DNA of 64,000 nucleotides from a bacterium (GCA_043804925.1 JAZDIP010000106.1:796-64795); one strand, 5' to 3'; shown: positions 6,616-60,228, counted from the stretch's first letter. Notes: generated from the sequence alone by a model not told the origin. Translations and numbers: made by a program.

Positions 6616-6684
6616 TCTATTTGGTCAATACATTCTTCTATTAAATATTGATATTTAAATTTATTAGATATTTTTTTAAAATTT

Positions 6685-7935: not shown

Positions 7936-8032
7936 AAAACGAATAGTGAAAAATGAAAAAGTCGGGAGAAGGGAAAAGGAGCGGGGACTTTAGAAAATAG
8001 ATGATTGAAATAGATTCCTGCATTCGCAGGAA

Positions 8033-8195
8033 AGACAGTGTTTTAATTTTTTTCGTAGGAATGACAGCGTTTTAAATTTTTTCGCAGGAATGACAGTGTT
8101 TTTATTTTTTTCGCTGGAATGACAGCGTTTTAAATTTTTTCGCAGGAATGACAACTTCTTATATAACAATCGCAGGAATGGCATAAACCTTCTGT
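8033..8195. repeat. Tandem repeat, ~30-bp unit TTCGCAGGAATGACAGCGTTTTAAATTTT x ~5.5, followed by an inverted partial copy (gtcattctgac)
   Basis: Directly visible head-to-tail copies with no unique spacers. It lies in a convergent intergenic region. Confidence 0.8.
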
Positions 8196-8270
8196 CTTTC
8201 TGTGTTTCCGCTTTTCGGTCATTCTGACTTAAGATTTCTCTTTAAATCAATTTTCAGATAATGTAAAAAT

Positions 8271-9230: not shown

Positions 9231-9407
9231 TGTTTTCTCCTTTCATTTTAATAGATATTAAAAGAACTTTGCAATTTAATAATTTTCTGGTTCCATTTAA
9301 AATATTTTAAAATAATAATGGCTTAAATACAAAAATTCAATTTCTTATTGCATTATTATCCCGATTTAGTTAATTTAAAAAATTAGATTATGATAAATGG
9401 AGGTGTA

Positions 9408-10763: not shown

Positions 10764-10819
10764 TAAAGCAAGTTTGAAAGAAATATTAAGTTAATAAATA
10801 AATTTCAAGGGGAGTTATT

Positions 10820-12028
10820 ATGAAAAAAATTTTTACACTAATTATTACATTTGTATTATTAGCAATGCTGATGAGTGAAACCTTGCAGGCAATTCCGGCA
10901 TTCGCAAGAAAGTACAACATGTCTTGCCAGACCTGTCATTCACCGGCACCAAGACTTAAGGCATATGGCGATGATTTTGCCGGGAACGGGTTTCGGCTTT
11001 CTGATAAAGATGCACCACGATATACTGTCGAAACAGGTGATGCCGATTTATCATTAATACGAGACTTCCCAATTGCCGCACGATTTGATGCTCATGCAAC
11101 ATATAATAATGCTAATCAGGAGAACAGTGATTTTGGTGTACCCTACATTTTAAAGCTTTTGAGTGGTGGAGAAATTGCCAAAGACTTTGCATATTACTTT
11201 TATTTTTATTTAAGTGAAAGAGGAGAGTTGGTAGGTGTTGAAGATTGCTATATAATGTTCAATGACCTTTTTAATATTGACCTGGATTTATATTTTGGTC
11301 AGTTTCAGGTTTCCGACCCGCTTTTCAAAAGGGAACTGAGATTAACGCTTGAAGATTATCAGCCATATAAAATGAAGCCGGATTTTTCAAAAATGAATCT
11401 CGCTTATGACAGAGGGATAATGCTGACATACGGGATGGATTGGGGAACGGATGTTATTCTCGAAGTTGTGAACGGATGCGGTTTACCCAAAGCTGATGCG
11501 AACAAACTTTTTGATATTGACGGACACAAAACATTAGTCGGTAGGGTATCTCAAGATATAGGAGATTTCTTAAGAATCGGCGGGTTTTTCCTGACCGGAA
11601 AAGAAGATATGGACAACATTATTTCCGACTATGTTACTAACAATGTTCAATCATATGGACCGGATATGACTTTGTCGTTCGGGGAAATGATTGAATTAAA
11701 TCTCCAATATGTTATGAGAAATGATAATTTTGTTTTTTCCACTACTGACTCAGTAGGAACCACTCAGTGGGTAGTTGATTTAAATACGAAGGGTGCAATG
11801 GCTGAATTAATCTTTACTCCACAGGGAGACCAAAGCAAATGGTATGCCGCTTCGGTTTTCAATTGGATTGAATCTGATGACAAATCTTTAAATTACAAAA
11901 CGGCAACATTGCATTTTGGATATTTACTGAAAAGAAATTTGAGGCTGGCTTTGGAAGGAACATATAATTTCTCAGATGCCGACGATCCATATACTCAGTT
12001 CAGTCTGGGAATTGTAACAGCTTTTTAA
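10820..12028 (+). CDS. Cyc2-like fused monoheme cytochrome-porin (outer-membrane beta-barrel with an N-terminal CxxCH)
   Basis: Signal peptide. There is a single CQTCH about 15 aa after the predicted cleavage site, the length is about 400 aa, and the C-terminus ends ...GIVTAF (an aromatic OMP terminus). RBS AAGGGGAG. The assignment to the Cyc2 family rests on architecture only. Confidence 0.6.
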   Translation: MKKIFTLIITFVLLAMLMSETLQAIPAFARKYNMSCQTCHSPAPRLKAYGDDFAGNGFRLSDKDAPRYTVETGDADLSLIRDFPIAARFDAHATYNNANQENSDFGVPYILKLLSGGEIAKDFAYYFYFYLSERGELVGVEDCYIMFNDLFNIDLDLYFGQFQVSDPLFKRELRLTLEDYQPYKMKPDFSKMNLAYDRGIMLTYGMDWGTDVILEVVNGCGLPKADANKLFDIDGHKTLVGRVSQDIGDFLRIGGFFLTGKEDMDNIISDYVTNNVQSYGPDMTLSFGEMIELNLQYVMRNDNFVFSTTDSVGTTQWVVDLNTKGAMAELIFTPQGDQSKWYAASVFNWIESDDKSLNYKTATLHFGYLLKRNLRLALEGTYNFSDADDPYTQFSLGIVTAF

Positions 12029-12040
12029 TTAGGAGGAATC

Positions 12041-12586
12041 ATGTTTTTTAATTATCAAAATATTGAAACAATGCTTACTGAAAAAAATCGCAAGAAGTAT
12101 ATCATTGCCGATTTCCTTGTTGGCAGGGGTTTCATTATATCACCTGTTATTATGGTTTTAGTATTCAGTTTGGTAAATTATTTTTTAGGAGACCCTCTGT
12201 TACCTTTTATCTACTATGCTTATATGTTTTTGGTAGTTTTCACCGTTGGTATCGCTGTATCCGTCATAATGTTTTCGGTAGAAAAGAAAATATTACAGGA
12301 ATTTAAAAATCAAAGTCAAGAGAAAAAGTTTTCGAAGCTTAAAATAATATTGTTTCTCAATGAATCATTTTACATTTTTGGATTTGTTATTGCCATTCAA
12401 ACATACAATACATTTAAGAGAATGTACACAGAAGGAACAAATATGTTCATCATAATTTTTTCTTCATTAATCATGATTTTGTTCTCTGTAATAATCGGTT
12501 TTATTGTTTATAAAAGTAACTTCAAAAAGCTGAAAGCTGAAATCGAAAGAAAAGGACTGTTTGAGAAATTGACAATTGATAATTAG
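12041..12586 (+). CDS. Hypothetical 4-TM membrane protein (paralog a)
   Basis: 181 aa, RBS AGGAGG. It ends ...EIERKGLFEKLTIDN, like its neighbour. Confidence 0.6.
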   Translation: MFFNYQNIETMLTEKNRKKYIIADFLVGRGFIISPVIMVLVFSLVNYFLGDPLLPFIYYAYMFLVVFTVGIAVSVIMFSVEKKILQEFKNQSQEKKFSKLKIILFLNESFYIFGFVIAIQTYNTFKRMYTEGTNMFIIIFSSLIMILFSVIIGFIVYKSNFKKLKAEIERKGLFEKLTIDN

Positions 12587-12594
12587 GATTTAAA

Positions 12595-13128
12595 ATGAAT
12601 TTAAAATACTCGAATATTGAAGCAATGTTAACTGAAGAATTGAATTTCAGATATTTCTGCTATCAGATATTGTGGAAAAGAGAGCTTTTCTTTGGAATGA
12701 TTTTTCTACCGTTATTCAATATCACTTATAGCATGATAAAAGGACAGAATCTCATGCCCTACCAATATGTTCATTTGGTTTTTGTCCCATTTATTTTATT
12801 GCTAATTGCAGGGATTTTAATATTTTTTACAGAGAGAATATTTTTGAGAAGATTATCAACAATTGGTAGATACAAAATATTTCAGAGAATCAAATATATT
12901 AATCAAATATCTGTAACTTTATTTATTATGGCTATTGTTACCGGAATAATAATAACTAAGGGTAAACCTGAAGATTTTTCAATCTTGAATTACCTCCAAA
13001 AAATGGGGATAGCCTTTATTGTTGTTTTCCCCGGAACATGGTTGTTTAAATGGTTCGGCGGTTATAAAACATTATTATCCGAAATCGAAAGAAGAGGACT
13101 GTTAGAAAAACTGACAATTGATAATTGA
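12595..13128 (+). CDS. Hypothetical 4-TM membrane protein (paralog b)
   Basis: 177 aa. Shares the N-terminal (NIEAMLTEE) and C-terminal (EIERRGLLEKLTIDN) motifs with 12041..12586. Confidence 0.6.
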   Translation: MNLKYSNIEAMLTEELNFRYFCYQILWKRELFFGMIFLPLFNITYSMIKGQNLMPYQYVHLVFVPFILLLIAGILIFFTERIFLRRLSTIGRYKIFQRIKYINQISVTLFIMAIVTGIIITKGKPEDFSILNYLQKMGIAFIVVFPGTWLFKWFGGYKTLLSEIERRGLLEKLTIDN

Positions 13129-22286: not shown

Positions 22287-22445
22287 ATGTTTGAATCAAT
22301 AATAAATTTCTTTAATGGATTGCCGCTTTATGCACAAATAGCGGTTGTGATACTTCTTTTGATGTTAATTATTTCTATCACAAAGAAATTCATCAAACTC
22401 GCAATTTTCATTGTGATTTTGATTGTGTTGGCTGTGATGATATTT
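22287..22445 (+). CDS. Possible small 2-TM membrane peptide (52 aa)
   Basis: ATG 3 bp after the tonB stop. The ORF is entirely hydrophobic. It is not in the ORF track (<60 aa). Confidence 0.3.
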
Positions 22446-22721
22446 TGAATTTGAAAACATGGAATATTAATTTTCATGTTATTTATTAACTGGCTAAATA
22501 AAATAGATTAAATACAAGTGCACAACTTTTAGACAAATATTTTACTTGCGGTGACACAAAGGAATAAGAGATATTAAATACTTGAGAAACGATTATTTGT
22601 TATATTGAGAGATTGGAATGAGTGAATAAAAAATATGTTAATGGATAATAAATAAATTTAGTTGTAATTAAATTAACTATTTATTTATATTTAACATTAA
22701 TAATTTAGCTAAATTTGTAGT

Positions 22722-23630
22722 ATGGAAAAAATGAAAAATATGATTGTTGAAAGAAAATATTTGCCAGCCTTAAGTAAGCTCTTTTCGGCAATTGTGATGA
22801 ATAGTATTGAACAAAAAGGAACTTCTAAATATATGATAGAAGTTTGTAAAAATAGTGGAATGGATAAGTATCTTGATCCTTCAATAAAGATATCTCAAGT
22901 GTTTGATCTTGTTTATAACTTAATCATTAAAGATTATAGAAATGAGTATATATATAAAAATATTATTGTTCAAAAATTACTTCTTGGTAAACACTCGCTT
23001 AATACAACACAACTATTGACAGAGTTTAGAATAGGAAAAAATAAAGCAGATGTAATATTATTAAACGGTACTTCCTATGTTTACGAAATTAAATCCGAGT
23101 ATGACTCCTTAAAACGGTTGGAAATTCAATTGCGTTCTTATTTAGATGCTTTTGATTTTATAAATGTTATTACATATCCATCCTTAGTTAACAAGATTCT
23201 ACCAGTTATTTCAGATAAAATTGGTGTTTTAGTTTTGACGAATAAAAATACCATATCAACAATTCGCCGACCAAAATCAAATAGAAAAAATATTAATCCT
23301 TTGGTTTTATTTGATTCTCTTAGAAAAGACGAATATTTAAATATAATCAATAAATATTATAGATATATTCCAGATGTACCAAATACAAAAATAAATAAAT
23401 ACTGTAAAGAATTATTTTCAAAAATACCTCCAAATGAAGCACATGATTTGGTTATTAATGTATTAAAAGAAAGAAATCATTCAAATATACTCAAAGAATT
23501 TATCAACAAAGCACCTAAATCTACTTTTGCCTATGCTTTAAGTATTGGTGATAAAAAAAAGAAGTTAGAAAGACTTATTGAGATATTTGATTCAAAGATT
23601 GAGTATAAGAGTTTTTCAAAAGTAAATTAG
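22722..23630 (+). CDS. PD-(D/E)xK-type nuclease-fold protein, sce7726-like (recalled from memory)
   Basis: 302 aa. A candidate catalytic core ADVILLNGTSYVYEIKSE (D ... E-x-K). The coding sequence is AT-rich compared with its neighbours. Confidence 0.55.
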   Translation: MEKMKNMIVERKYLPALSKLFSAIVMNSIEQKGTSKYMIEVCKNSGMDKYLDPSIKISQVFDLVYNLIIKDYRNEYIYKNIIVQKLLLGKHSLNTTQLLTEFRIGKNKADVILLNGTSYVYEIKSEYDSLKRLEIQLRSYLDAFDFINVITYPSLVNKILPVISDKIGVLVLTNKNTISTIRRPKSNRKNINPLVLFDSLRKDEYLNIINKYYRYIPDVPNTKINKYCKELFSKIPPNEAHDLVINVLKERNHSNILKEFINKAPKSTFAYALSIGDKKKKLERLIEIFDSKIEYKSFSKVN

Positions 23631-23640
23631 AGGTTAAAAT

Positions 23641-24579
23641 ATGTATTATCCATATTTAAGGGGAAAACAATTTGAATTAATTTTACTGAGAGATAACGCC
23701 GAATTTATTTCAAAGAATAATATATATCCGATTATAGAACCAGTGAAAACTGATTATAATGCACTACTGCGTGCTATAAAAATATTAAATGAAAATAACG
23801 TAGATTTTGTTTTAGTTGTTAATCCACAAGTTGGTGAAAAACCTATTGATTTTAAAAATTTTTTACAAACTCTTGAATCAGGGAATTTTCTAAAAAACTC
23901 AAAATTATCAATAGGATATATTCTCAATTCAAAATCAAAAATAAAAGAGATTGAATTTCTATTTAACAAATATATACATAACAGTTTTTCAATCATTCAT
24001 TATGGAAGTTCATTTGATAAAGAAATAATAAATATTTTAAAAGAACAAAAAAACATTAATAGACATATTTTTATTGATGGTTTTGCTGGAAAATTATATC
24101 AAAGACAATTCAAGGGTGATGGAATAGCCAGAGCTTTAATTAGAAATGGGTTTAAAGCAAAAAAGAAAAATTCAGATTACCCCTATAATGAGCATTTCTC
24201 TGATTTACATGTTACATATGACGATGAAGGAATGGAAGGATTTGGAGATTTTTTAATCGTTGGAGATGATTATTCAGAAACAGGGGGACCAGCTTATGCA
24301 GTTGCTATTCATTTAACATATATTGATAATGAAGATATGTTTATTTATCATTTTATCTCTGATAGAACTGACTCCCCAACTGATCCTGGAGGTAAATTTT
24401 TTGAAGCACTAGAAAAACTTGTCTCAGAGGTAAATAAACCAAATTCACTTATTTTTAGGTCAAAAGCTTGCCATGAATATTTGAATCTATTTAAAAGAAA
24501 GCATTATCCTGGACTTGGATTTATTAAAAAATTGTCAATGCAACATCATATCGAACTAATGGCTGATTTTTTAAAATAA
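23641..24579 (+). CDS. sce7725-like hypothetical protein (recalled from memory), partner of the upstream gene
   Basis: 312 aa. The N-terminus MYYPYLRGKQFELILLRDN resembles the sce7725 family start. It starts 10 bp after the previous stop, with a GAGGT RBS. Confidence 0.5.
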   Translation: MYYPYLRGKQFELILLRDNAEFISKNNIYPIIEPVKTDYNALLRAIKILNENNVDFVLVVNPQVGEKPIDFKNFLQTLESGNFLKNSKLSIGYILNSKSKIKEIEFLFNKYIHNSFSIIHYGSSFDKEIINILKEQKNINRHIFIDGFAGKLYQRQFKGDGIARALIRNGFKAKKKNSDYPYNEHFSDLHVTYDDEGMEGFGDFLIVGDDYSETGGPAYAVAIHLTYIDNEDMFIYHFISDRTDSPTDPGGKFFEALEKLVSEVNKPNSLIFRSKACHEYLNLFKRKHYPGLGFIKKLSMQHHIELMADFLK

Positions 24580-24592
24580 AAGAAATAATATT

Positions 24593-25609
24593 ATGCTTTA
24601 TTGCTGCCCAAATTGTTTTACAGATATTTTTTTACAAAATCAAATACGAGCTCTTAGTAAGAAACAGGGTAATTGCTCATTTTGTAAAACAAAAAATACC
24701 AAATTAATTAAACCAATAGAATTAATTGATCGATTTGAGCCTTTGTTAAATCTATATGAAAAAGATAATAATGGATTATATCTCAACGAATTAATACAAT
24801 CTGACTGGAAGGTTTTTCAATTCAAAAACTCATCAAGCCAAAAAAAATTATTAAATGCACTTTCGGATGATTTTACTGATTATAGTAAAAAATATAGACC
24901 AATTTTATCAAAGGAACGCAAAAATATTGAGCAATGGGAAAGTTTTAGAGAAGAGTTGAAGCATCATAACAGATTTTTCCCGAAAAACGCAATCAATCTT
25001 AATCAATTGGAGCCATTTGGCAAATATCTCGGATTAATACTTAAGCCAGGTTCACAAAAGTTCTACCGAGCTAGATTGAATACAACAGGCAAACCTATTG
25101 TATTATCGAAAATGGGTAAACCACCTAATAATATTGTTTCAAATGGGAGGGCTAATCCACTTGGAATTTCTTATTTATATGTTGCATCTACCATTGATAC
25201 TGCAATTGCAGAAATTAGAGGACAAAAAGGTGAATTAATTACTGTTGCTGAATTCGAATTAAAAAAAAATTTGGAATTAGCAGATTTACGAGATCCTATT
25301 AAAACAATTAGCCCATTTGATTTTAACTCTAATGATGAATTAGAATTGATATATAAAAATATGCCTTTTCTGATTTTACTCGGTAATGAACTATCAAAAC
25401 CCGTTATGCCAAGGGAGGCAAATTTAGAATATCTTCCGAGCCAATACCTTTCTGAATTATTTAAACATATTGGTTTCCACGGAATAATATATAGAAGCTC
25501 TATTTCAGATGGAAATAATTACGTAATTTTTGAAGATAAAAGATTAAAACCTTATAATACATATCAGTTTATAATTAAAGACGTACAAACTTTTCATGAA
25601 AAAATTTAA
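24593..25609 (+). CDS. Zinc-ribbon + RES-domain protein (putative NAD+-targeting effector)
   Basis: N-terminal C4 zinc ribbon: CCPNCF...(22 aa)...CSFCKT. RES-domain hallmarks: GRANPLGISYLYVASTIDTAIAEI (Arg/Glu) and GIIYRSSISDGNNYVIF (Ser). Confidence 0.65.
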   Translation: MLYCCPNCFTDIFLQNQIRALSKKQGNCSFCKTKNTKLIKPIELIDRFEPLLNLYEKDNNGLYLNELIQSDWKVFQFKNSSSQKKLLNALSDDFTDYSKKYRPILSKERKNIEQWESFREELKHHNRFFPKNAINLNQLEPFGKYLGLILKPGSQKFYRARLNTTGKPIVLSKMGKPPNNIVSNGRANPLGISYLYVASTIDTAIAEIRGQKGELITVAEFELKKNLELADLRDPIKTISPFDFNSNDELELIYKNMPFLILLGNELSKPVMPREANLEYLPSQYLSELFKHIGFHGIIYRSSISDGNNYVIFEDKRLKPYNTYQFIIKDVQTFHEKI

Positions 25610-25634
25610 TTATTGTTAAGATGTTTTTAACACA

Positions 25635-52223: not shown

Positions 52224-53117
52224 TTAAAAACGGCTAAACTCCAAATGAATATTCGATCCCTTTACGCTGTGAGTTAAAGCTCCTGATGAAATAGCATTTA
52301 CCCCTGTTTTAACGTATTCTCCGAGATTACTCAGATTTATTCCTCCTGATGCTTCGATAAAAACATCTTCTCCTGCATTATCTCTAATGTATTCTACCAT
52401 CTTAGATATAGTTGAAGGACTCATATTGTCGAGTAAAAAGCCATCTACTCCTATTTCCAATGCTTCATTAATTTCTTCTTTATTTTCAACTTCAATTTCG
52501 ATTTTTAAATTTTTTGGATTATTATTTCTAAGCATCTCAATTGCTTGTTTTATACCACCTGCCGCTTTAATATGATTATCCTTAATTAATATACCGGAAG
52601 ACAAATCCAGACGGTGATTGAAACCACCTCCGACAGTTACGGCATACTTTTCAAATAATCTCAGTCCGGGAGTGGTTTTCCTCGTATCAAGAATCTTGAC
52701 ATTATAGGGCTTTGCTATCTCAGCATATTTATTTGTCAATGTCGCTATTCCGCAAAGCCGTTGCAGTAAATTAAGCATTACCCTTTCGTGAGAGAGGATA
52801 ATATCTGTTCTGCCTTTTATCACTGCAATTATTTCACCATTTTTAACCTTGTCCCCGTCTTTGAATTTCAGGTCAATTTGACTATTCCCGTCAAAGAAAT
52901 ACTCTAATGTTTGCTCTCCTGCAAAAATTAAATCTTCTTCTGCCTGCAAAAAAGCAGTTATGGAGTTATGAGTTGTGGGTTGAGGGTTGTTTAATGTATT
53001 TGAAAAAATCGCATTAGTTGTTGCATCACCATCGGGCATATCCTCGGCAAGAAATTCATTAATCTTTTTGATAATGTATTCCTCAGGCAGTTTCTTTATT
53101 TGTTCATATTCTATCAT
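52224..53117 (-). CDS. nadC: Nicotinate-nucleotide pyrophosphorylase (quinolinate phosphoribosyltransferase)
   Basis: QAPRTase motifs (ILDTRKTTPGLR, KDNH). 4-bp overlap with nadA. Confidence 0.9.
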   Translation of the reverse strand: MIEYEQIKKLPEEYIIKKINEFLAEDMPDGDATTNAIFSNTLNNPQPTTHNSITAFLQAEEDLIFAGEQTLEYFFDGNSQIDLKFKDGDKVKNGEIIAVIKGRTDIILSHERVMLNLLQRLCGIATLTNKYAEIAKPYNVKILDTRKTTPGLRLFEKYAVTVGGGFNHRLDLSSGILIKDNHIKAAGGIKQAIEMLRNNNPKNLKIEIEVENKEEINEALEIGVDGFLLDNMSPSTISKMVEYIRDNAGEDVFIEASGGINLSNLGEYVKTGVNAISSGALTHSVKGSNIHLEFSRF

Positions 53118-54034
53118 GAAAGCTCCAGCATCCTCTCAATTGGTTTTAATGCTCTTAATCTCAAATTTTCTTCAATATGAATTTGCGGTTCCATTTTCTC
53201 AAGTGCAGATATAATTTTATCAACTGTATTCAGCTTCATATAAGGGCAGTTATTACAACTGCATCCATCGAGATTTGGTACTGTATAAAAAGATTTGCCT
53301 TCTGTCTTTAACTCTAATTGATGAATTATTCCGGGTTCAGTTAGTATGATAAATTCCTTAGAATTTGAATTAACTGCTTGTTTTATTATTCCTGAAGTTG
53401 AACCAATAAAATCTGCATACGCCAAAATATTTTCGGGACATTCAGGATGTGCAAGGACTTTTGCATCAGGATATTTGTTCATCAGATTAATCAGTTCAAG
53501 TTCCGAAAAAACAGTATGAACTTCGCATGACCCATCCCACAAAACCATATCCCTTCCGGTTTTTTTAATTACATGTTTCCCTAAATATTTGTCAGGAGCA
53601 AATAAAATCTTTTCGTCTTTTGGGAGAGAATTTACTATTTTTTCAGCATTGGAAGAAGTACAGATAATATCAGACATCGCCTTGACCTGTGTGGAGCAGT
53701 TAATGTATGATATGACAGTATGACCGGGATGTGCATCAATCCATTCTTTAAATTTGTCGGCAGGAGTATTGTCAGCAAGCGAACATCCGGCATTCATATC
53801 AGGCAGCAAAACTACTTTTGTAGGATTTAAAATCTTTGCAGTCTCAGCCATAAAATGTACACCCGCAAAAACAATGACATCTGCTTCTGTCTTTTTAGCC
53901 GCTTGTGCAAGAGCAAGTGAATCACCCAAAAAATCCGCTATGTCCTGTATTTCCGATTCCTGATAATAATGAGCAAGAATTATAGCATTCTTCTCTTTTT
54001 TCAATCTATTTATTTTATCGATTTTTGATTCCAT
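53114..54034 (-). CDS. nadA: Quinolinate synthase A
   Basis: ILAHYYQ, three Cys ligands for the 4Fe-4S cluster (CS...C...C), about 305 aa. Confidence 0.9.
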   Translation of the reverse strand: MESKIDKINRLKKEKNAIILAHYYQESEIQDIADFLGDSLALAQAAKKTEADVIVFAGVHFMAETAKILNPTKVVLLPDMNAGCSLADNTPADKFKEWIDAHPGHTVISYINCSTQVKAMSDIICTSSNAEKIVNSLPKDEKILFAPDKYLGKHVIKKTGRDMVLWDGSCEVHTVFSELELINLMNKYPDAKVLAHPECPENILAYADFIGSTSGIIKQAVNSNSKEFIILTEPGIIHQLELKTEGKSFYTVPNLDGCSCNNCPYMKLNTVDKIISALEKMEPQIHIEENLRLRALKPIERMLELS

Positions 54035-54140
54035 GTTTCAAATATATTACTCTTTTAATTATTTATCAATTAATTAACGAATGATAATATCAATAATTAT
54101 TCATAATTCGTAATTCATAATTAGTAATTAGTAATTGTTT

Positions 54141-54357
54141 TAAACCCACTCCCTCGTCAACTCATCTATTTTTTCCATTGTCTTGATTGTATAATCCAAA
54201 ACATTAACAACATTAATAAAATGGTTAACATCAAAAGTTGATAATGCTATTTCATGCTTTTTGCGTTCTTTCAGCCATTTGTCCAATACCTGATAGCCGC
54301 CTCCCAAATTGGTGATGGTAATCTTTTTGAATGCTGTTAAAGTATTCCTGAAACATA
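54141..54357 (-). pseudogene. Orphan gene fragment (about 72 aa open frame without start codon)
   Basis: Minus-strand frame ...NTLTAFKKITITNLGGGYQVLDKWLKERKKHEIALSTFDVNHFINVVNVLDYTIKTMEKIDELTREWV* with no in-frame ATG/GTG/TTG. It sits at the left edge of the AT-rich island. Confidence 0.25.
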
Positions 54358-54659
54358 AAACAACCTGATAATGATTAAATACTTACATAATACAAAAATA
54401 GGAAATAATTATCTTTGTTTAAATATAATTAACCACAAATATTTGAAGTGTAAAAGTGTAAAAGGGATTAGGGTAATTTTTACGGTTACAGTATCTGATT
54501 TATTCGTAGAGTTTGCATTGAACTTTTTTTTGAATAAATAACAAAGAGCATTATATCTGATTATTATATTTAAAATCAATAATTCATAATAATTATAACA
54601 ATTTTTTTTGTAAATTGTTTTTAAAAATATTGTTAACACAAAACAGTCATGTTAAATAT

Positions 54660-55379
54660 ATGAAAAGTACTGAAATAAAATTACCTAAAAAAATAACACC
54701 GTGTCCAATTATAGATGCGTTGTTGGAGATTAGGTTTTCAATTAATACTGATCCAAATGCTGTATTTGGACAATTATATTCATATTTCAAAGAATCATTT
54801 TCAAAGCCAGAATCTTTACCAATTTTACAAGTACCTGAATATATAAGAAAAGTTGACCCGAATTTTCAATTCAAACCTCATTATCGACTTGAAAAGGATG
54901 GGTTTATTCTACAAATTGGTTCAGATGTTTTAACGATTAGTTCTTTTCCAGAATATATTGGATGGAATAATTTCTCTGAAATGATTTATGAAATATTAAA
55001 AAAAGTGAAAACTTCTGATATAATTGATAGAATTTCAAGGCTTGGTTTGAGATATGTTAATTTTTTTGAATTGAATATTTTCGACCATATAAATTTAGAT
55101 GTTCATATGACTGGAAATTCTATTACAGAAAAAAATATTATAATAAAAACTGAAATAAATGGTGATGATTTTAAGCAAACATTACAAATTTCAAATCATG
55201 CACAAAGTGGTGAAAAATTTGGTTCAATAATTGATATTGATACTTTTAAAGATATTGAATTAGAAGATTTTTTTAATAATCAAGAAAAGTTGATAGAATT
55301 TGTACATTTACAAGAAAAACACTTATTTTTTAGTTTATTAAAAGATGAATTTTTGCAAAATTTTAATCCGGAGTATTAG
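54660..55379 (+). CDS. Hypothetical protein, TIGR04255-like (recalled N-terminal P-I-x-E/D-A-x-x-E-I-R-F motif)
   Basis: MKSTEIKLPKKITPCPIIDALLEIRFS... Very AT-rich. First gene of a 3-gene operon. Confidence 0.5.
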   Translation: MKSTEIKLPKKITPCPIIDALLEIRFSINTDPNAVFGQLYSYFKESFSKPESLPILQVPEYIRKVDPNFQFKPHYRLEKDGFILQIGSDVLTISSFPEYIGWNNFSEMIYEILKKVKTSDIIDRISRLGLRYVNFFELNIFDHINLDVHMTGNSITEKNIIIKTEINGDDFKQTLQISNHAQSGEKFGSIIDIDTFKDIELEDFFNNQEKLIEFVHLQEKHLFFSLLKDEFLQNFNPEY

Positions 55380-55381
55380 AA

Positions 55382-55705
55382 ATGTCTACTGTAACAAATA
55401 CAACAACTTCAACCGCAATTTTATTTTTCGCATTAACATCAATTAATCCGACAATGTATAGTAATCCTTATTACTCTACTGATAATTTGATTCCTTTAAA
55501 AAATCATTCTTATCGTGTCAATAAAGATTTAGTTTATTTGAAAAATATAGAATTTGATGAATCAAAAAGTTACATGTTGATTACTAATGAAAATGAAATA
55601 TTTAATGTTTTATCGAATTTCTCAAATAAAATATTACATCACTTAGTTGATATTGAACCTGAATATTCTGATATATTAAATAAGCATTTTTGGGAATTAA
55701 TATGA
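55382..55705 (+). CDS. Hypothetical protein
   Basis: 107 aa. Starts 3 bp after the previous stop. Confidence 0.45.
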   Translation: MSTVTNTTTSTAILFFALTSINPTMYSNPYYSTDNLIPLKNHSYRVNKDLVYLKNIEFDESKSYMLITNENEIFNVLSNFSNKILHHLVDIEPEYSDILNKHFWELI

Positions 55706-56319
55706 AAATTGAAGATATTGATCTTTATTTACCAAAATTTCTGTCAGCGGAATCCTATAGAATATTAATAAAAGGACTTAATGACTTTCCTGAAAATATT
55801 GATACAAGGTTATATACTACCTATTTAAATCAAAAAAATTTAATTTATCAAGGAGATGGAATTCAAGACTTATTAGTAATTAATCTACCTAAAAGCGAAA
55901 TTAATAAAGTTCCATGTATGATATTGTCAAATACATGTGATATTGATTTGCATAATAAACGAAAATTACCAACAAAAATAGTTTATACCCCTATATTTAA
56001 TCTTGAAAAATTTTATAAAAAGTTAAAATCAGAATCAAAGGATAAAGAAGGCATACTTTCCTTTATTAAATCTGTAAAAAGACAGGAAGTATCACAGATA
56101 TTTTATTTACCAAAATTAAATGAAAAAATTGATGAATCTATAATATTTTTTGATTTTATCTGTAGCTGCGATAATGGATTTATTGATAGAGAAAATTTAA
56201 AAACTCAGAGATTATTTACTTTAAGTGATTATGGATCGTACTTGTTCATATTTAAATTATCAATTCATTTTACAAGAATTCAAGACAAAGTTGAAAGAAG
56301 AAGTATTATCGATGAATAA
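55702..56319 (+). CDS. Hypothetical protein
   Basis: ATGA overlap with the previous gene. 205 aa with several Cys (CMILSNTCD, FICSCDNG). Confidence 0.5.
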   Translation: MKIEDIDLYLPKFLSAESYRILIKGLNDFPENIDTRLYTTYLNQKNLIYQGDGIQDLLVINLPKSEINKVPCMILSNTCDIDLHNKRKLPTKIVYTPIFNLEKFYKKLKSESKDKEGILSFIKSVKRQEVSQIFYLPKLNEKIDESIIFFDFICSCDNGFIDRENLKTQRLFTLSDYGSYLFIFKLSIHFTRIQDKVERRSIIDE

Positions 56320-56606
56320 TTTTTGAGGGTGTAAACTAAGGTTTTCTTAAGTATGTCTTATTGATTATCTACTCTCTTAGCCATTATATCATGAACTTAA
56401 ATTTGGAGTTCCCCCAATATTATGGACAAAAAATTAAGATAGTTTCTTCCTTTCATAGTCAATAAGAGTATGGTGAAAACCATTTCAAAATCATTTCGAA
56501 ACTAATATAAAACTATTAGTTTTATATTAGTTTTATAATAGTTTTCTTGCATTTAGTTTTCGGCGATATATATTCGCATTGAGTTTAAAATTATTTTTAT
56601 GAATCA

Positions 56607-57230
56607 ATGCGAAGGTGCTTAATGAACAACGAAATCACAACCACAGAAAAAAAACCCTGGGAACAGCTCAAAGGCGAAAAATCCAGGCAATTTTTAGCTT
56701 TTTGCCAATACCTCGAGCTTGGCAACAGGCGTAAATTCAGCAATATCGCATCCTATACCAATGTATCTCCGGGTTGTATTCACAATTGGGCTCAAAAATG
56801 GAATTGGGAAGAAAGAGCTTCGGCTTTCGACAGGCATTCTATAGAAATGAATAAAAAGGAAAAAAGGGAGCAATACGAAAAAGTTAAAAATATTCACTCA
56901 AAAAGTATGAATAATATGTCGCTTCTTATCTACAAACTCATTGATTTAATCAATAAAAAAACCCGCTCTGAGCTTAACAAAATGTCGGATATGGAGCTTA
57001 CGGATTTTTATAAAGCCCTTAAATTATTAACTAATATCCTGCCTTCCCTTTCGGATATCGCTTCTGCCAATTTGAGTCAGTCCAAACCTCTGTGGCAGGA
57101 AGAAGAAACTCCTTTGGATTTTATGACTATTTACGATAAACACCCAGAATTGATTGATGATGTTAACGACTTACTTGGCAAAATAATCAATGCGGAAACT
57201 AATGATGCTCCTTTATTTAATCGAATATAG
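56607..57230 (+). CDS. Putative phage terminase small subunit (by position and predicted HTH)
   Basis: About 200 aa directly upstream of terL. Its N-terminal third has a helix-turn-helix-like segment (FSNIASYTNVSPGCIHNWAQKW). Confidence 0.4.
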   Translation: MRRCLMNNEITTTEKKPWEQLKGEKSRQFLAFCQYLELGNRRKFSNIASYTNVSPGCIHNWAQKWNWEERASAFDRHSIEMNKKEKREQYEKVKNIHSKSMNNMSLLIYKLIDLINKKTRSELNKMSDMELTDFYKALKLLTNILPSLSDIASANLSQSKPLWQEEETPLDFMTIYDKHPELIDDVNDLLGKIINAETNDAPLFNRI

Positions 57231-57261
57231 AAAAATTATTAGGATAAAAAAAAATAAAAAA

Positions 57262-57388
57262 GATAAAAAACGATAAAAAAGATAAAAAACGATAAAAAAG
57301 ATAAAAAACGATAAAAAAGATAAAAAACGATAAAAAAGATAAAAAACGATAAAAAAGATAAAAAACGATAAAAAAGATAAAAAACGAT
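57262..57388. repeat. 19-bp tandem repeat GATAAAAAACGATAAAAAA x ~6.7 (A6 tracts phased every 9-10 bp)
   Basis: Directly visible. It ends 4 bp before the terL ATG. Confidence 0.85.
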
Positions 57389-57392
57389 AAAA

Positions 57393-58901
57393 ATGAATAA
57401 AATTCTTTTAGATAATGACATAAATATAACAAACTTCAGAAATGCCTCTCCCGCATCCTTGGCTTATATTATAAGTAAAGGCAGGTTTGAATTTCCTGAC
57501 CATATCAAACTGTTAGACAATTTGCTCGTTAAATTATCCCGTAGAGAATTCAATAAACTAATAATCAATATGCCACCGAGACATGGCAAATCCGAACTTA
57601 TTTCGAGATATTTTCCCTGTTGGTATTTGGGCACTTACCCTTCTCACAGAATTATATTGACCTGTTACGGTTCGTCACTGGCAGAATCATTTGGAAGAAA
57701 AGTTAAAAATATCATTTCCGAATTTGGAAATAACTTTTTCAATTTATGCTTAAGTCCTCATTCAAAATCAGCAAAACGTTTTGATATAGAAGGTAATTCA
57801 GGCGGGATGGATTTTGTCGGTGCAGGAGGTGCCATTACCGGAAAAGGTGCGGACCTGCTGATAATAGACGACCCGATAAAAAACAGTGCTGAAGCCGCTT
57901 CTTTAAATATGAGGGAAGTTCTTTGGGATTGGTTTAATTCTACCGCAATGACCCGGCTTGAATCCGATGGTGTCGTTGTGGTTGTTATGACACGTTGGCA
58001 TGAAGATGATTTGTGCGGTAGAATTATCGCAAATAATACAATTATCACTCCCGATGATTATTTTAAGAAAAATATTTCGCTTTTAGATGATTCATGGATA
58101 TTAGCAAAGCTACCGGCTATAGCTACTGAAGGTGATTGTATTGGCAGAAGCCCGGGTGAAGCTTTGTGGAGTAGTAGATTTCCAATTAAAAATTTAAAAA
58201 ATGCAGAGAAAAGAATGGGCTCTTATTTGTTCTCGGCTCTTTACCAGCAATCACCTTCTCCGGCAAGTGGAAATATTTATCAACGAAAACATTTCAGGTA
58301 CTTCACCGAAAATGATGAGTTCTATTTTCTCGAAGCAATGGGGCAGGATTATGACACTAAAAAGACTATAGCAAAACAATACTGTTCCACATTTATTGTT
58401 GTTGACCTCGCAGTTACACTAAAGCAGTCTTCAGATTTCACAGTACTTCTTGTTTTTAAAACAACACCGCAAAACGATATATTGGTTGTTGATATTGAAC
58501 GGCAGAAATGCGAAGGAGCAAACCACAAAAATATTATCAAAAGAATGAATGATAAGTGGACACCTTTAATGATAGGTATTGAGTCCAATCAGTATCAGAC
58601 TGCATTAATTCAGGAATTGCAAAAAGAAGGATTTTCCATCAAATCATTAAGAGCTGATAAGGAAAAAAAGATTCGTGCATTACCCATGCAGGCAAGATTG
58701 GAAGCAGGAACGGTATTCTTCCCTTTAAAAGCAAGCTGGCTTCATGACTTTGAAGAAGAACTTCTGATGTTCCCGAATGCCACCCACGACGACCAGGTTG
58801 ATGCCTTTGCATATATCTCATACATGGTCAGTGATTTCTCAAAAGAGAATCCGAAGAGTGCAGGTATCAGAAAAAAAGAAAAAATAGCATCGAAATTTTG
58901 A
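57393..58901 (+). CDS. terL: Phage terminase large subunit
   Basis: Walker A PPRHGKSE, Walker B LLIIDDP, and coupling motif TRWHEDDL. The C-terminal RNaseH-like nuclease has conserved Asp residues (VVDLAV, ATHDDQVDAF). Confidence 0.85.
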   Translation: MNKILLDNDINITNFRNASPASLAYIISKGRFEFPDHIKLLDNLLVKLSRREFNKLIINMPPRHGKSELISRYFPCWYLGTYPSHRIILTCYGSSLAESFGRKVKNIISEFGNNFFNLCLSPHSKSAKRFDIEGNSGGMDFVGAGGAITGKGADLLIIDDPIKNSAEAASLNMREVLWDWFNSTAMTRLESDGVVVVVMTRWHEDDLCGRIIANNTIITPDDYFKKNISLLDDSWILAKLPAIATEGDCIGRSPGEALWSSRFPIKNLKNAEKRMGSYLFSALYQQSPSPASGNIYQRKHFRYFTENDEFYFLEAMGQDYDTKKTIAKQYCSTFIVVDLAVTLKQSSDFTVLLVFKTTPQNDILVVDIERQKCEGANHKNIIKRMNDKWTPLMIGIESNQYQTALIQELQKEGFSIKSLRADKEKKIRALPMQARLEAGTVFFPLKASWLHDFEEELLMFPNATHDDQVDAFAYISYMVSDFSKENPKSAGIRKKEKIASKF

Positions 58902-59039
58902 CATATATTCTTGTTTGATTTTAGATTATATATTTTATATTTGTAATTAAGTGGATTGCTGTAACAAATTTTGAAAGATAATGACATGAGTAATCAATTC
59001 CTGACATCTGATTTTCTAAATATTCTTTCTTGTATCAAA

Positions 59040-59160
59040 TTTAGAAAAATCCTGTCTGCCGTCTGCTGTCTGCCGTCTCCTGCTTTATTTATTCCTTCAT
59101 TCTTTCGTTTCACATTTCACGTTTCACGTTTCACCATTTTCCTGTCTGCCGTCTGCGATA
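59040..59160. repeat. Cluster of short tandem repeats: TGTCTGCCGTC x2, GTTTCAC x4, and a 17-bp direct repeat CCTGTCTGCCGTCTGC at 59050 and 59141
   Basis: Directly visible. It lies between the terL stop and the truncated T9SS cargo gene. Confidence 0.6.
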
Positions 59161-59265
59161 TTACATTCACAAGAGAGTCCCATTGTCTTCACCAGCGGAT
59201 TTGAAGAAGGCAATAAATCAATCTGGGATGACAGGGACCCGAATCCTGATTCAACAAATCTTCTT

Positions 59266-60228
59266 ATGGAAGACCCCGGACCATTCAACAAAGCAGGAAA
59301 TCATGTAATGCGATTGCGTGTTCCTCCCGGAAGAGGAGGAGCAGATTTGGTTAAGATATTACCCGGAACTTACGATAAGCTCTATGCAAGATGGTACATG
59401 ATGTGGGAACCGGGATATGATTTCTCGGCACGAAACCACGGAGGTGGTCTTCATGCAGGTAACCGGAACAATCTTGGGAGGTCCGGTAACCGACCAATCG
59501 GTAACGACTGGTTTTCTACGTGGATTGAACCTGCAGACACCCACCTGAATCTTTACACTTACTATCGGGGAATGTACATGGATTGTGCAAATCCCCAAGG
59601 ACAATGCTGGGGTGACCATTTTCCATGCTGGTTCGACGAAGGTGAGCATATTTGCGACAAGCCGGAGCATAGGGAAACAATTATGCCGCCAATGATGGAA
59701 ACCGGCAGATGGTATTGCATTGAAATAATGTTGGATGCAGGTACTCCCGTTCAAAGTGATGCAAAAGCAGACGGTGTGGCAAACTTTTGGATTGACGGGA
59801 TTGAATACGGTCCATTTCGTCATCTTTGGTTGCGAACAACTGCTGAATTGAAAATTAACATTCTTTGGCTTAGCTTATTTCATCATGGGGAGCACAGTGT
59901 CGAAGGGATTATGCTTGATGAGGTAATCGTTTCAACAGACAGAATCGGCTGTGGCGAGCCACAGAAAATATTAAATGAATCCGATGAAAATTATTTTACC
60001 ATAATCCCTGATTATGATAATAAGACAATATCTGTTTTTTCCAACAAATCTCAGATATTTGATATAACCATATATAATATCTTTGGCGAACGAGTATATT
60101 TCCAAAATAACATTATCGAAGCAAGAAATTATTATGAAATCAGCTTTAACGCTTTACCGACAGGAATTTATTTTGTGCAGATAAAATCAAACACAAGTAT
60201 CAAAAATCACAAAATATTGCTATGGTAA
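59266..60228 (+). CDS. T9SS C-terminal sorting-domain protein lacking a signal peptide (probable 5'-truncated gene)
   Basis: C-terminal ...ITIYNIFGERVYFQ...GIYFVQIKSNTSIKNHKILLW. The in-frame upstream sequence back to 59020 encodes plausible mature-protein sequence (ESPIVFTSGFEEGNKSIWDD...) but has no start and no leader. Confidence 0.55.
   Translation: MEDPGPFNKAGNHVMRLRVPPGRGGADLVKILPGTYDKLYARWYMMWEPGYDFSARNHGGGLHAGNRNNLGRSGNRPIGNDWFSTWIEPADTHLNLYTYYRGMYMDCANPQGQCWGDHFPCWFDEGEHICDKPEHRETIMPPMMETGRWYCIEIMLDAGTPVQSDAKADGVANFWIDGIEYGPFRHLWLRTTAELKINILWLSLFHHGEHSVEGIMLDEVIVSTDRIGCGEPQKILNESDENYFTIIPDYDNKTISVFSNKSQIFDITIYNIFGERVYFQNNIIEARNYYEISFNALPTGIYFVQIKSNTSIKNHKILLW

Follow-up and report, generated by a model that had tools for sequence, protein, structure and literature searches.

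There are two phage-type terminase genes in the bacterial DNA analysed here, a stretch of 64,000 nucleotides (the window), and the question is how they came to lie between nadA and a T9SS cargo gene. The original prediction was that about 5 kb of atypical DNA at this place represents one degraded mobile island, either a remnant of a prophage or phage satellite or an island of packaging genes. The best reading now appears to be that the locus is a domesticated packaging module that adjoins a spot of gene turnover. The interval is a composite of an AT-rich insertion, a resident terS/array/terL and a GC-rich T9SS gene. There is about an even chance that these parts have separate histories and that the packaging module is possibly GTA-like.

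Synteny and composition of the interval

The quinolinate synthase gene, nadA (53114..54034, minus strand; NCBIfam NadA, E 2.4e-135), appears to be the left anchor of a conserved nadA / terS / terL synteny. In two related loci, L006 and L007, the gene order is nadB-nadC-nadA / terS / terL, and nadA has the same orientation relative to terS-terL as in the window. Their proteins are 79% (NadA), 55% (TerS) and 54% (TerL) identical to those of the window. The spacer between nadA and terS is 363 bp in these relatives versus 2,573 bp in the window. Two non-coding blocks upstream of terS, AAAACCATYTCAAAA and one adjoining the start codon, are common to the window and L006. Thus, terS-terL is resident and ancestral, and the insertion is confined to about 54,035-56,470. 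An imperfect inverted repeat with a conserved block lies upstream of terS (56475..56546; arms of 29-33 nt, 73-83% complementary). It is a candidate operator or promoter region and appears to be the right limit of the insertion. The original prediction had proposed a comparison of the nadA region in order to define the insertion; the comparison delimited it, but left terS-terL outside.

The insertion, from 54,035 to about 56,470, is about 2.4-2.5 kb long with 24% GC. The cassette DNA within it has a GC content of 0.239 and a tetranucleotide distance from the window of 0.381, where the background has a median of 0.246 and a 95th percentile of 0.353. Thus, the predicted atypical, AT-rich composition holds for 54.0-56.5 kb. 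It does not hold for terS-terL, which is compositionally ordinary (GC 0.36-0.37; for terL alone, GC 0.373 and a distance of 0.241). The T9SS gene is also atypical (distance 0.401) and looks foreign, but it deviates in the other direction, being GC-rich (0.413).

The T9SS cargo gene (59182..60228, plus strand) was identified by Por_Secre_tail (35.2 bits, cut-off 27). Its homologues align from 59182 (query residue 4-5) at their own residues of about 20-60. The first start codon is at 59266, and there is no in-frame ATG, GTG or TTG in 59017-59265. The start and signal peptide are therefore missing, as had been predicted, and the gene is a probable pseudogene. The predicted repeat cluster is also present, as a repeat scar at the broken 5' end (59050..59156) with three to four copies of TCCTGTCTGCCGTCTGC (4 matches versus 0.05 expected) around a TTTCAC(R) x 4 run (59106-59139). 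This part (58,902-60,228) could be a separately acquired GC-rich cargo gene that lost its start and signal peptide at the repeat-scarred junction.

The view that the whole of 54.1-59.3 kb is one degraded island, with terS-terL as its last decaying remnant, can draw on several of these features. The terminase pair comes from a phage and stands alone, its neighbours include AT-rich foreign genes and the stub of a restriction-modification gene, and a truncated gene with a repeat scar lies at the right edge. Nevertheless, this view is highly improbable. It is largely refuted by the nadA/terS/terL synteny without AT-rich genes in L006/L007, and terL is compositionally native with all motifs intact. 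No att-like flanking direct repeats were found around the interval, and there is no tRNA in the 64-kb window. The other 45 large ORFs of the window gave no match to capsid, portal, tail or integrase genes, the absence of capsid, portal and integrase being in agreement with the prediction. They also gave no match to the head genes of related terL loci, and a protease gene was found nowhere in the window.

The AT-rich insertion

The insertion in the nadA-terS spacer, about 2.4 kb of AT-rich DNA, contains a Type IIG stub and an operon of three genes, A, B and C. The stub (54140..54357, minus strand) is the start-less ORF fragment that had been predicted. It is what is left of the 3' end of a Type IIG restriction-modification gene (PADLOC REase_MTase_IIG, E 1.3e-5), matching positions 1025-1070 of the 1096-position model, so that over 90% of the gene is absent. 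Following a stop, the reading frame stays open for 72 codons, and its sole start codon is an internal TTG (54140-54307, 55 aa). The stub was not found beside the cassette in 90 other cassette loci.

The three AT-rich genes are present and closely packed on the plus strand, as had been noticed. Gene A (54660..55379) encodes a TIGR04255-family protein of 239 aa that is identical to P0241 (NCBIfam TIGR04255, 126 bits with a cut-off of 30; phrog_5464, E 3e-40). Its AlphaFold2 model has a pLDDT of 92.5, and the fold has weak, generic matches to TBP and AdoMetDC (TM about 0.3). Gene B (55382..55705) encodes 107 aa, and its protein has no match to any curated family; in related loci its position is invariably between A and C. 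In each of the six contexts of P0162, a gene of 103 aa was called at this place. Gene C (55702..56319) overlaps gene B by 4 nt and encodes a phrog_4575 protein (E 3e-42) of 205 aa that is identical to P0121. There are 652 homologues of protein C at E <= 1e-5, the best 120 of the 652 being 55-65% identical, and those with names are mostly from Bacteroidota. Invariant residues include Q50-G51-D52, S76-N77-x-C79, D82, N85, K103, and Q128, as well as K185, S187, H189, R192, and R199. The structure model of protein C has a pLDDT of 40 and gives no usable fold.

The cassette appears to be a self-contained operon that spreads horizontally. A, B and C were detected in 53 related loci, and A and C in 14 more, many of which have a gap of about 300 bp at the position of B. 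The order A-B-C is kept in nearly every locus with room for the trio, on dozens of unrelated contigs. An identical C protein occurs in differing contexts, beside IS91-type and rve-type transposases and a UvrD helicase. The distribution is sporadic and sequence conservation is high; as the original prediction had supposed, the genes are foreign cargo rather than core genes. No terminase lies beside the cassette in the 88 other cassette loci examined, which also counts against a single island.

The trio is also present in two Pseudomonas temperate phages. In Dobby, which is P2-like, it adjoins the portal gene, and in VW-6S it directly follows the cI repressor and precedes the integrase. Prophage-expressed exclusion genes are located at fixed positions, such as rexAB after cI in lambda and old/tin by the portal-side end in P2. 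The A-B-C cassette is like these in its two phage positions and in being a small, self-contained, horizontally spread operon. It is unlike them in that none of its proteins has a PADLOC match, C falls outside all characterised families, and A, of the TIGR04255 family, is only weakly TBP-like. The cassette may thus be an accessory module of the prophage-expressed type, with superinfection exclusion or anti-phage defence as its most likely function. Protein A could sense or bind a ligand or nucleic acid, and protein C could be the effector.

It is possible, though less probable, that the cassette is not for defence but is a toxin-antitoxin/addiction operon or a metabolic/regulatory accessory operon that hitch-hikes on mobile DNA. 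The missing PADLOC match fits this, as does the fact that no nuclease, NTPase or TIR domain can be recognised in the cassette proteins and that most neighbours of the cassette are housekeeping genes. Some neighbours elsewhere, however, are defence or toxin-antitoxin genes, the range including ShosA/PsyrA, mad3/mad8, a Type I restriction enzyme, a reverse transcriptase, PDC-S01, and HipA. Together with the classic exclusion-gene positions in Dobby and VW-6S, the restriction-modification stub that adjoins the cassette in the window, and the combination of sporadic distribution with high conservation, these neighbours argue for a defence-type role.

The resident terminase genes and the tandem array

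The predicted terS-like and terL pair is indeed isolated and phage-derived. The small subunit gene, terS (56622..57230, plus strand), was assigned by phrog_6299 'terminase small subunit' (E 8e-24); its Pfam Phage_terminase score of 18.2 bits is below the cut-off of 22. The ORF opens at 56607; alignment with the L006 orthologue, a 199-aa gene upstream of terL, favours the start at 56622. TerS profile matches also lie beside terL in L028, L079, L083, L086 and three archaeal loci. Most solitary terL loci have no recognisable terS.

A 19-bp tandem array (57243..57402; GATAAAAAACGATAAAAAA x 8.4), which the original prediction did not mention, separates terS from terL, with its end on the terL start codon. 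The unit, (GATAAAAAA|CGATAAAAAA) x 8.4, gives 16 A-tract half-units that are spaced alternately by 9 and 10 bp. The array has a TRF score of 290 with 96-97% matches, and 8 matches to the unit were counted versus 0.03 expected. Only two other terL loci, L260 with (GATAAAAAAAGTTAAAAAA)n and L006 with GACAAAAYNN x 5, have an array at this position. The unit sequences differ among the three loci, which suggests array homogenisation. Pac sites and iteron arrays are phased, intrinsically bent repeats that are bound by TerS or initiator proteins. The array in the window is like these in its 19-bp direct repeats, its A-tracts about 9.5 bp apart, its place adjoining terS, and its position being kept in three orthologous loci. 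It is unlike them in its unusual location, which is between the two terminase genes and overlaps the start of terL. It is a candidate TerS-binding, pac-like or otherwise bent-DNA element. A leader, a UP-like element or a neutral variable-number repeat would be equally plausible.

The large subunit gene, terL (57393..58901, plus strand), is intact (phrog_38, E 3e-105). Both Pfam domains score above their cut-offs, Terminase_6N with 46.2 bits and Terminase_6C with 45.8 bits; these are the N-terminal ATPase and the C-terminal RNase-H-like nuclease. In 35 clade members, Walker A (PPRHGK66SE), Walker B (D159-D160), T200-R201-W202, and the acidic nuclease residues D338, E397, D466, D467, and D470 are invariant. 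Residues outside the catalytic cores, such as H37, P20, and P487, are also conserved.

The clade of this TerL is large, mostly solitary and chromosomal. Its record titles mostly name Kapabacteria or Ignavibacteria, although some (Hyphomicrobiales, Desulfobulbaceae, Chloroflexota) are at odds with that attribution. Four terL homologues with Pfam-annotated neighbours have housekeeping surroundings with no phage gene within 10 kb, and two of these four are on chromosome-sized contigs of 4.2-4.5 Mb. A solitary terL is carried by the complete genomes OW818676.1, OW818654.1, OY761611.1, and JAVSMQ010000001.1. Among loci at least 42% identical to the window TerL and with at least 5 kb on both sides of terL, 26 are without a head gene and five have one. 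Five separate groups have nad genes at most 10 kb from terL, namely the window, L006, L048, L055/L076, and L060/61/74/80. The best syntenic terL pairs have 8-16 flanking genes in common, with TerL identity within the range of the neighbours. The top IMG/VR TerLs are 36-43% identical to that of the window and match best to outer groups, not to this clade. The TerL tree is star-like, and head-linked members are scattered among solitary ones. In some loci the GC content of terL is above that of the locus by up to 12 points.

The dN/dS values are about 0.05-0.19 in solitary terL pairs with estimable dS, and 0.11 for the window terL and its closest relative, L260; such purifying selection is another argument against a decaying island. 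The end of the array and the first 56 or so terL codons, a tract of about 180 bp, are 95-98% nucleotide-identical between the window and L260, and the rest of terL is about 74% identical. There has therefore apparently been some horizontal exchange, and inheritance would not be purely vertical. It appears that terS-terL is a phage-derived module that has been largely vertically inherited and kept by purifying selection. In published surveys, decaying prophages preferentially lose terminase and portal genes, terminases normally at an early stage, and retain tail-fibre, integrase and transposase genes (PMC7744054). Retention of a lone terL is therefore the opposite of normal decay, which again speaks against an island of which the terminase is the last remnant.

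Another view is that terL has a cellular role unrelated to capsids, as a translocase/nuclease in repair, DNA export or chromosome processing, and that terS and the array are lineage-specific leftovers. The many clade members that are solitary, without terS or head genes within 10 kb, yet are under purifying selection would fit this. It is improbable since we know of no capsid-independent function for any TerL and several relatives keep head genes linked. The conservation at H37, P20, and P487 also argues against it, as the N- and C-terminal regions of phage TerL outside the catalytic cores contact TerS and portal.

Proposed packaging and comparison with known systems

The head genes in relatives are a phrog_976 protease, a phrog_1005 major head protein (E 4e-86) and a phrog_113 portal (E 6e-90). 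L037 has capsid through portal and then TerL, and in L040 and L025 the genes run from protease and capsid to TerL, with no portal. In L058, TerL is followed by about 8 kb of other genes and then portal, and in L084 by one gene and then protease and capsid. No tail genes were recognised beside these head modules. The original prediction had asked whether the genes adjoin a full prophage in relatives; some clade terL genes do have protease, capsid and portal genes beside them, but no full prophage was seen at those loci.

A packaging module could work as follows. TerS would bind the phased repeat array, and TerL would cut and pump DNA. Protease, capsid and portal genes at other sites of the chromosome would provide the capsids, and terS-terL would then be part of a multi-locus GTA-like system. 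Less likely, the capsids may be supplied by an infecting phage.

A related alternative is that, when a related phage infects, the host TerS-TerL engages its capsids or concatemers. This would be either a terminase-interference defence or host DNA packaging outward from the array, with the locus as a fixed platform similar to satellite or lateral transduction. Local capsid genes are absent, terS, array and terL are kept together in this sub-lineage, and the adjoining spacer has carried defence-type cargo. The bacterial group also has related phages whose TerS, TerL and head genes are homologous, namely L079, L083, and L086, with 87-99% identity to IMG/VR contigs. The near-identical tract beside the array in L260 suggests recent DNA exchange there, but it could be ordinary recombination. 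This alternative is doubtful, as neither TerS nor TerL matches any PADLOC model, most solitary terL genes are without terS, and no helper phage was identified.

The preferred reading, a domesticated and possibly GTA-like module, can be compared with three kinds of known systems. It is like RcGTA-type GTAs in having chromosome-fixed packaging genes that are largely vertical and under purifying selection, with no integrase/att bounds. Structural genes of these GTAs can also be at separate loci in a multi-locus 'genome' (Hynes et al., 2016, PMC5026251; Esterman et al., 2021, PMC7947584). It is unlike RcGTA in that the terL of RcGTA is within a head-tail cluster of about 15 kb; here terS-terL is alone, and tail genes were not recognised in relatives either. 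To our knowledge, no GTA has been described for the lineage of the window.

Capsid-forming PICIs and other phage satellites have their own terS and terL, compact head/packaging sets without tails, and terS-based packaging redirection. The head-only modules in relatives L037 and L040 resemble such a satellite morphogenesis module. Satellites, however, are mobile and carry regulators and a replication module in addition to an integrase and att sites. The window locus has none of these features and is syntenic across distant relatives.

The locus is also like domesticated defective prophage genes, with a phage gene that is intact in the chromosome and has a low dN/dS. Compared with the usual defective prophages (PMC7744054), a lone terminase that is kept across many species is the reverse pattern.

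Gene order, composition and synteny beside nadA

The DNA between nadA and a T9SS cargo gene appears to be composite, which we put at roughly 80%, and to combine a spot of gene turnover with a domesticated terminase module and a foreign gene that is broken. According to ORF calls and family searches, nadC and nadA lie on the - strand up to 54034 (nadA, 53114-54034). These are followed by an ORF fragment without a start (54140-54357, - strand) that matches a Type IIG restriction-methyltransferase model (E 1.3e-5). Next on the + strand is a close-packed group of three genes, A (54660-55379; TIGR04255 family and phrog_5464), B (55382-55705; 107 aa, no family), and C (55702-56319; phrog_4575, a family that assigns no function). 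A terS-like gene (56622-57230, + strand) and terL (57393-58901, + strand) come after C. The last gene (59182-60228, + strand) has a T9SS C-terminal sorting domain. The start-less fragment, the three AT-rich genes, and the isolated terS-like and terL pair named in the original prediction are all present.

The GC content of the whole window is 0.333, and its background of tetranucleotide distances has a median of 0.246 and a 95th percentile of 0.353. The stub, cassette, and spacer (54035-56606) have a GC content of 0.24-0.26, and the tetranucleotide distance of the cassette is 0.381. The GC content is 0.363 for terS and 0.373 for terL, and the distance of terL from the window is 0.241. For the T9SS gene, these values are 0.413 (GC content) and 0.401 (distance). 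Only about 2.4-2.5 kb looks like AT-rich foreign DNA, and the composition of the terminase pair is native-like. The T9SS gene also looks foreign, but on the GC-rich side. The approximately 5 kb of atypical DNA that had been proposed is therefore found for the stub, cassette, and spacer and not for terS-terL, which have native composition. A second strongly AT-rich patch (22300-25610, GC < 0.25) is present in the window. Its genes are of the sce7726 family (22722-23630) and the sce7725 family (23641-24579, E 6e-96), together with one of 338 aa without a family. This is another gene set of sporadic distribution and unassigned function, and possibly a second accessory island.

The nadA region was compared with that of a metagenomic relative (L006/L007), in which identity to the window is 54% for TerL, 55% for TerS, and 79% for NadA. 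There, nadB-nadC-nadA lie on one strand and a 199-aa terS homologue and terL follow on the other. The spacer between nadA and terS is 363 bp in the relative versus 2,573 bp in the window. Upstream of terS, both share AAAACCATYTCAAAA, a block adjoining the start codon, and a repeat or inverted-repeat architecture. Because the short spacer and these blocks are kept in L006/L007, the inserted part is limited to approximately 54,035-56,470 and terS-terL is resident. An insertion of atypical composition fits 54.0-56.5 kb only and was rejected for the terminase pair. The proposal of one degraded prophage, satellite, or packaging island does not hold either, since terS-terL is syntenic in L006/L007 and native in composition.

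The stub at the nadA side of the insertion is what is left of a much longer gene. Its C-terminal part, GGGYQVLDKWLKERK..., aligns to positions 1025-1070 of the 1096 in the Type IIG model. A full-length enzyme has approximately 1,000-1,100 aa, and only about 45-72 C-terminal residues are left in the window. The stub is absent beside the cassette in other cassette loci, and its presence here suggests that the nadA-terS spacer has turned over defence cargo before. Similarity to other cassettes at the DNA level ends at the ORF ends (54650-56310), and thus transposon ends were not detected. The interval is flanked only by short AT-rich repeats at chance level and not by convincing att-like direct repeats. 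The only att-like candidate is a 24-nt direct repeat, 83% identical, that brackets the stub (54085-54108 and 54571-54594). There is also a 14-bp tandem repeat, ATTCATAATTAGTA x 2.2, on the nadA side (54099-54136). These repeats around the stub may have been left by a deletion or an insertion, or they may match by chance because the DNA is AT-rich.

Housekeeping genes, e.g., those for phosphoglycerate mutase, NuoF, MtnA, aspartate carbamoyltransferase, and PgsA, account for the remaining 45 large ORFs of the window. No match was found among them to phage structural or integrase families or to the head genes of relatives, in agreement with the original prediction that capsid, portal, and integrase genes are missing nearby. 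A tRNA scan of the 64-kb window was negative, as was a search for Rfam families in 53-60.5 kb. Promoter-like sites (39 versus 32 expected) and terminator-like sites (3 versus 2.3 expected) were at background level in consensus scans. An integrated prophage or its remnant was rejected on the lack of an integrase family among the window ORFs, of a tRNA, and of att repeats.

The T9SS gene is recognized by Por_Secre_tail (35.2 bits, cut-off 27) and TIGR04183 (32.1 bits, cut-off 23). Its homologues align from 59182, at their own residues 20-60 or so, which is 28 codons 5' of the first start codon (59266). No in-frame ATG, GTG, or TTG is present from the beginning of the open frame at 59017 up to 59266. 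As homology begins upstream of the first start codon, the start and signal peptide were lost exactly at a repeat cluster (59050-59156; 4 matches versus 0.05 expected), just as had been noted from the sequence. The gene does not form the right end of an island. A separate acquisition is indicated by its GC content and by the fact that other genes lie downstream in L006 and in L260, the closest TerL relative. The observations of the original prediction are confirmed, and its interpretation is partly supported.

The terminase pair and its array

As judged from its sequence, TerL is a large terminase subunit with an N-terminal ATPase and a C-terminal nuclease. It matches phrog_38 (E 3e-105) and scores above cut-off for Terminase_6N (46.2 bits, cut-off 22) and Terminase_6C (45.8 bits, cut-off 22.6). 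The ATPase motifs PPRHGK66SE (Walker A), D159-D160 (Walker B), and T200-R201-W202 are invariant in 35 sequences, and so are the RNase-H-like nuclease residues D338, E397, D466, D467, and D470 in 35 clade members. The terS-like gene matches phrog_6299 (E 8e-24). It is below cut-off for Pfam Phage_terminase (18.2 bits, cut-off 22) and NCBIfam TerS (14 bits, cut-off 120). It lies 162 bp upstream of terL, and the same order is found in L006 and in four other relatives (L028, L079, L083, and L086). It is gone from most solitary terL loci. In three otherwise solitary loci, terS-like ORFs lie 3' rather than 5' of terL (L047, 1591-1845; L048, 11992-12453; L050, 3350-3646).

TerL has more than 7,900 homologues, and the best 120 are 42-75% identical. 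Named homologues among these 120 come from Kapabacteria, Ignavibacteria, FCB-group (Fibrobacteres-Chlorobi-Bacteroidetes), and Bacteroidota MAGs, and some of their contigs are 1.4-4.5 Mb. Many other records, L010, L013, L014, L016, and L020 among them, are titled 'uncultured Hyphomicrobiales', and there are also Desulfobulbaceae and Chloroflexota titles. Their TerLs group with the Kapabacteria- and Ignavibacteria-titled ones, and L014 shares neighbours with L011. The titles of MAG records look unreliable, and taxon statements on the terL clade rest on these names. Among sequenced phages, the best TerL match reaches 40% identity, and the best IMG/VR contigs reach 36-43%. The top IMG/VR TerLs cluster with outer lineages and not with the window clade, and an exact search with the conserved 5'-terminal part of terL gave no match among viral contigs.

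Most members of the clade stand alone. No portal or capsid gene lies beside terL in the 64-kb window. The gene is solitary among ordinary genes in the Pfam-annotated contexts of L001, L002, L005, and L006, and it is solitary as well in the closest relatives, L090/L092 and L260. A scan with one genome per species gave 80 terL loci, and clustering of the ORFs of terL loci found no widely shared neighbour. Where TerL is at least 42% identical to that of the window and at least 5 kb are present on both sides, 26 of 31 loci lack a head gene and five have one. Paenibacillus prophage controls have conserved co-directional genes directly 3' of terL, and in five outer loci (L068, L079, L083, L086, and L087) a portal homologue is at this position. 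In L090 (2498-3243) and L092 (2618-3379), a 129-aa protein of unassigned function and a Cupin_2 protein are kept as a pair 3' of terL.

The solitary genes would appear from sequence comparison to be functional and largely vertically inherited. Within species groups (e.g., L060/61/74/80, L038/49, L041/44, and L011/14), 8-16 flanking genes are held in common around terL, and TerL identity is inside the range of the neighbouring genes. The dN/dS of terL is 0.07-0.10 where dS is below about 1.3 and approximately 0.05-0.19 over all solitary pairs with estimable dS. Head-linked terL genes are in the same range, and the window gene compared with that of L260 (75% identical) gives 0.11. Five separate groups have nad genes at most 10 kb from terL. 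Chance would be an unlikely cause of this linkage for an operon present in single copy, and the neighbourhood may therefore be old and shared. In six loci (L027, L081, L031, L009, L012, and L010), terL is 8-12 GC points richer than its own locus. This is a hint that acquisition or replacement was more recent in some clade members than in the rest.

A tandem repeat (57243-57402) of 19-bp units, (GATAAAAAACGATAAAAAA) x 8.4, lies between terS and terL and ends on the start codon of terL. The unit has 8 matches versus 0.03 expected. Arrays are present at the equivalent position in three orthologous loci. That of the window consists of 16 half-units (GATAAAAAA/CGATAAAAAA), that of L260 has at least 8 units up to the contig end (GATAAAAAAA/GTTAAAAAA), and that of L006 has about 5 units (GACAAAAYNN). 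Among 87 loci, GAYAAAA arrays upstream of terL were found only in the window and L006/L007, and outside these 87 also in L260. The A-tracts are spaced by approximately 9.5-10 bp, and the array is presumably strongly curved DNA. It is most naturally read as a candidate TerS-binding or pac-like site, and it may alternatively be a leader element or a neutral variable-number repeat.

The DNA from the last array unit to about codon 56 of terL (57381-57560) is 95-98% identical to L260 (135-320). Identity of the two terL genes falls abruptly to approximately 72-75% 3' of about 57560. We read this position as a probable recombination or mosaic boundary, with a terS-side module that includes the TerL N-terminus apparently exchanged between lineages. 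Inheritance is thus not purely vertical. The first 170 nt of terL were also considered as a universally constrained cis element. L006 has no special conservation over the first part of terL, and the recombination boundary fits better.

The A-B-C cassette

Protein A matches TIGR04255 over profile positions 2-252 of 252 (126.2 bits, cut-off 30). At E <= 1e-5, there are 652 homologues of C and 185 of A, and they occur on the same contigs. An identical C protein was found in six contexts, always with A (234 aa), B (103 aa), and C (205 aa) and with 4-nt overlaps. These six adjoin transposases or a helicase. In 88 further loci, the order of the trio is kept wherever the contig has room. All three genes are present in 53 of these loci and A and C in 14, many of which have a gap of about 300 bp at the position of B. 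The plasmid collection has one cassette record, and it is unannotated.

The trio is also present in two unrelated Pseudomonas temperate phages, Dobby and VW-6S. In Dobby, which is P2-like, it adjoins the portal gene. In VW-6S, it lies directly 3' of the cI repressor and before the integrase. We take these sites to correspond to those of old/tin in P2 and rexAB in lambda. In other loci, most of 148 neighbouring proteins are housekeeping and a handful belong to defence or toxin-antitoxin systems (ShosA/PsyrA, mad3/mad8, a Type I restriction enzyme, a reverse transcriptase, PDC-S01, and HipA).

Searches of PADLOC-DB v2 gave no match at E <= 0.1 for A, B, C, TerS, or TerL, and the restriction-modification stub was the only match. 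A, B, and C had no match among PDB sequences, and no mention of TIGR04255 was found in a literature search. The AlphaFold2 model of protein A (pLDDT 92.5) resembles only generic TBP and AdoMetDC-type folds. The model of protein C is of low confidence (pLDDT 40), and its invariant positions are Q-G-D, S-N-x-C-D-x-D, K, H, and R. We propose, only tentatively, that the cassette has a role in exclusion or defence of the type expressed from a prophage. The cassette is a compact, widespread operon that sits where exclusion genes are found in two temperate phages, and it has no counterpart in PADLOC-DB v2. This makes it a concrete candidate among possible new exclusion or anti-phage systems.

Possible capsid supply and comparison with known systems

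We know of no job for a terminase without a capsid. In some clade members, a compact head module adjoins terL. It combines a maturation protease (phrog_976) and a portal (phrog_113, E 6e-90) with several small genes and a major head protein (phrog_1005, E 4e-86). Tail genes were not recognized beside these modules. The head-only sets are on chromosomal contigs of related MAGs, and the degree of linkage varies. In L037 (1688-8600), capsid through portal is followed by TerL. The set runs from protease and capsid through TerL in L040 (6225-11400) and L025 (274-5550), with the portal absent within 10 kb. In L084 (7578-13200), one gene separates terL from protease and capsid, and in L058 (9980-21343), about 8 kb of other genes separate terL from the portal. 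This series suggests a head-and-packaging gene set that is dispersed in the chromosome.

A related lineage of true phages (L079, L083, and L086) has a ParB-like gene, terS, terL, a portal, and the head families of the clade modules. Its TerL is 87-99% identical to IMG/VR contigs and its terS is homologous to that of the window. As these phages carry terS, terL, and portal, the pair in the window represents the ancestral phage arrangement. In these loci (approximately 200-13000) and in the IMG/VR loci L187, L188, and L192, the head genes are on the opposite strand. The lineage also has PAPS-reductase-like and methyltransferase-like genes, and these labels, ParB-like included, are our own reading of the sequence.

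A functional terminase that would use capsids made in trans is possible, at somewhat less than even odds. The main rival is a phage-exploiting or anti-phage role of terS-terL. The intact terL is under strong purifying selection, in conserved neighbourhoods, in dozens of species, and in most cases without further phage genes in the 10 kb around it. This points to an undescribed GTA-like system in the FCB group, to a module with which the host exploits phages that infect it, or to employment of the motor in a new cellular role. A more specific form of the capsids-in-trans reading, which seems unlikely as a whole, is that the mostly stand-alone, selected terL clade is a chromosomal module for the initiation of DNA packaging. 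Capsids would be supplied in trans by dispersed domesticated head genes (tail-less or multi-locus GTA-like) or by infecting phages. TerS and the phased A-tract array would accompany terL in the sub-lineage of the window, and packaging of host DNA would start at the array. If so, the nadA-terS spacer and the flanking genes would be a hotspot of gene exchange, which fits the turnover of cargo on both sides and the recombination tract beside the array, and the system would be a previously undescribed GTA-like type.

Detectors of prophages and viruses that use terL as a hallmark could miscall such chromosomal loci. A literature search gave nothing relevant that ties terminases to Ignavibacteria or describes orphan or domesticated terminases, and no published description was found of conserved stand-alone terminases in the Kapabacteria/Ignavibacteria group. 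Surveys of prophage decay place terminases among the first genes lost (PMC7744054). Retention of a lone terminase is thus the reverse of ordinary decay.

Phage satellites are att-bounded islands of 5-20 kb with an integrase, regulators, and a primase/replication module, whereas the terS-terL locus is without these. A satellite (PICI, capsid-forming PICI, or P4-like) was rejected, as none of these genes is present in the locus or the window. GTAs are recognized by genes of phage origin that are inherited vertically and kept under purifying selection, and terL shows both, with some recombination. The apparently dispersed head and packaging genes of the terL clade can be likened to the multi-locus 'genome' of RcGTA (PMC5026251). 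We class terS-terL with known domesticated phage genes or GTA-like elements.
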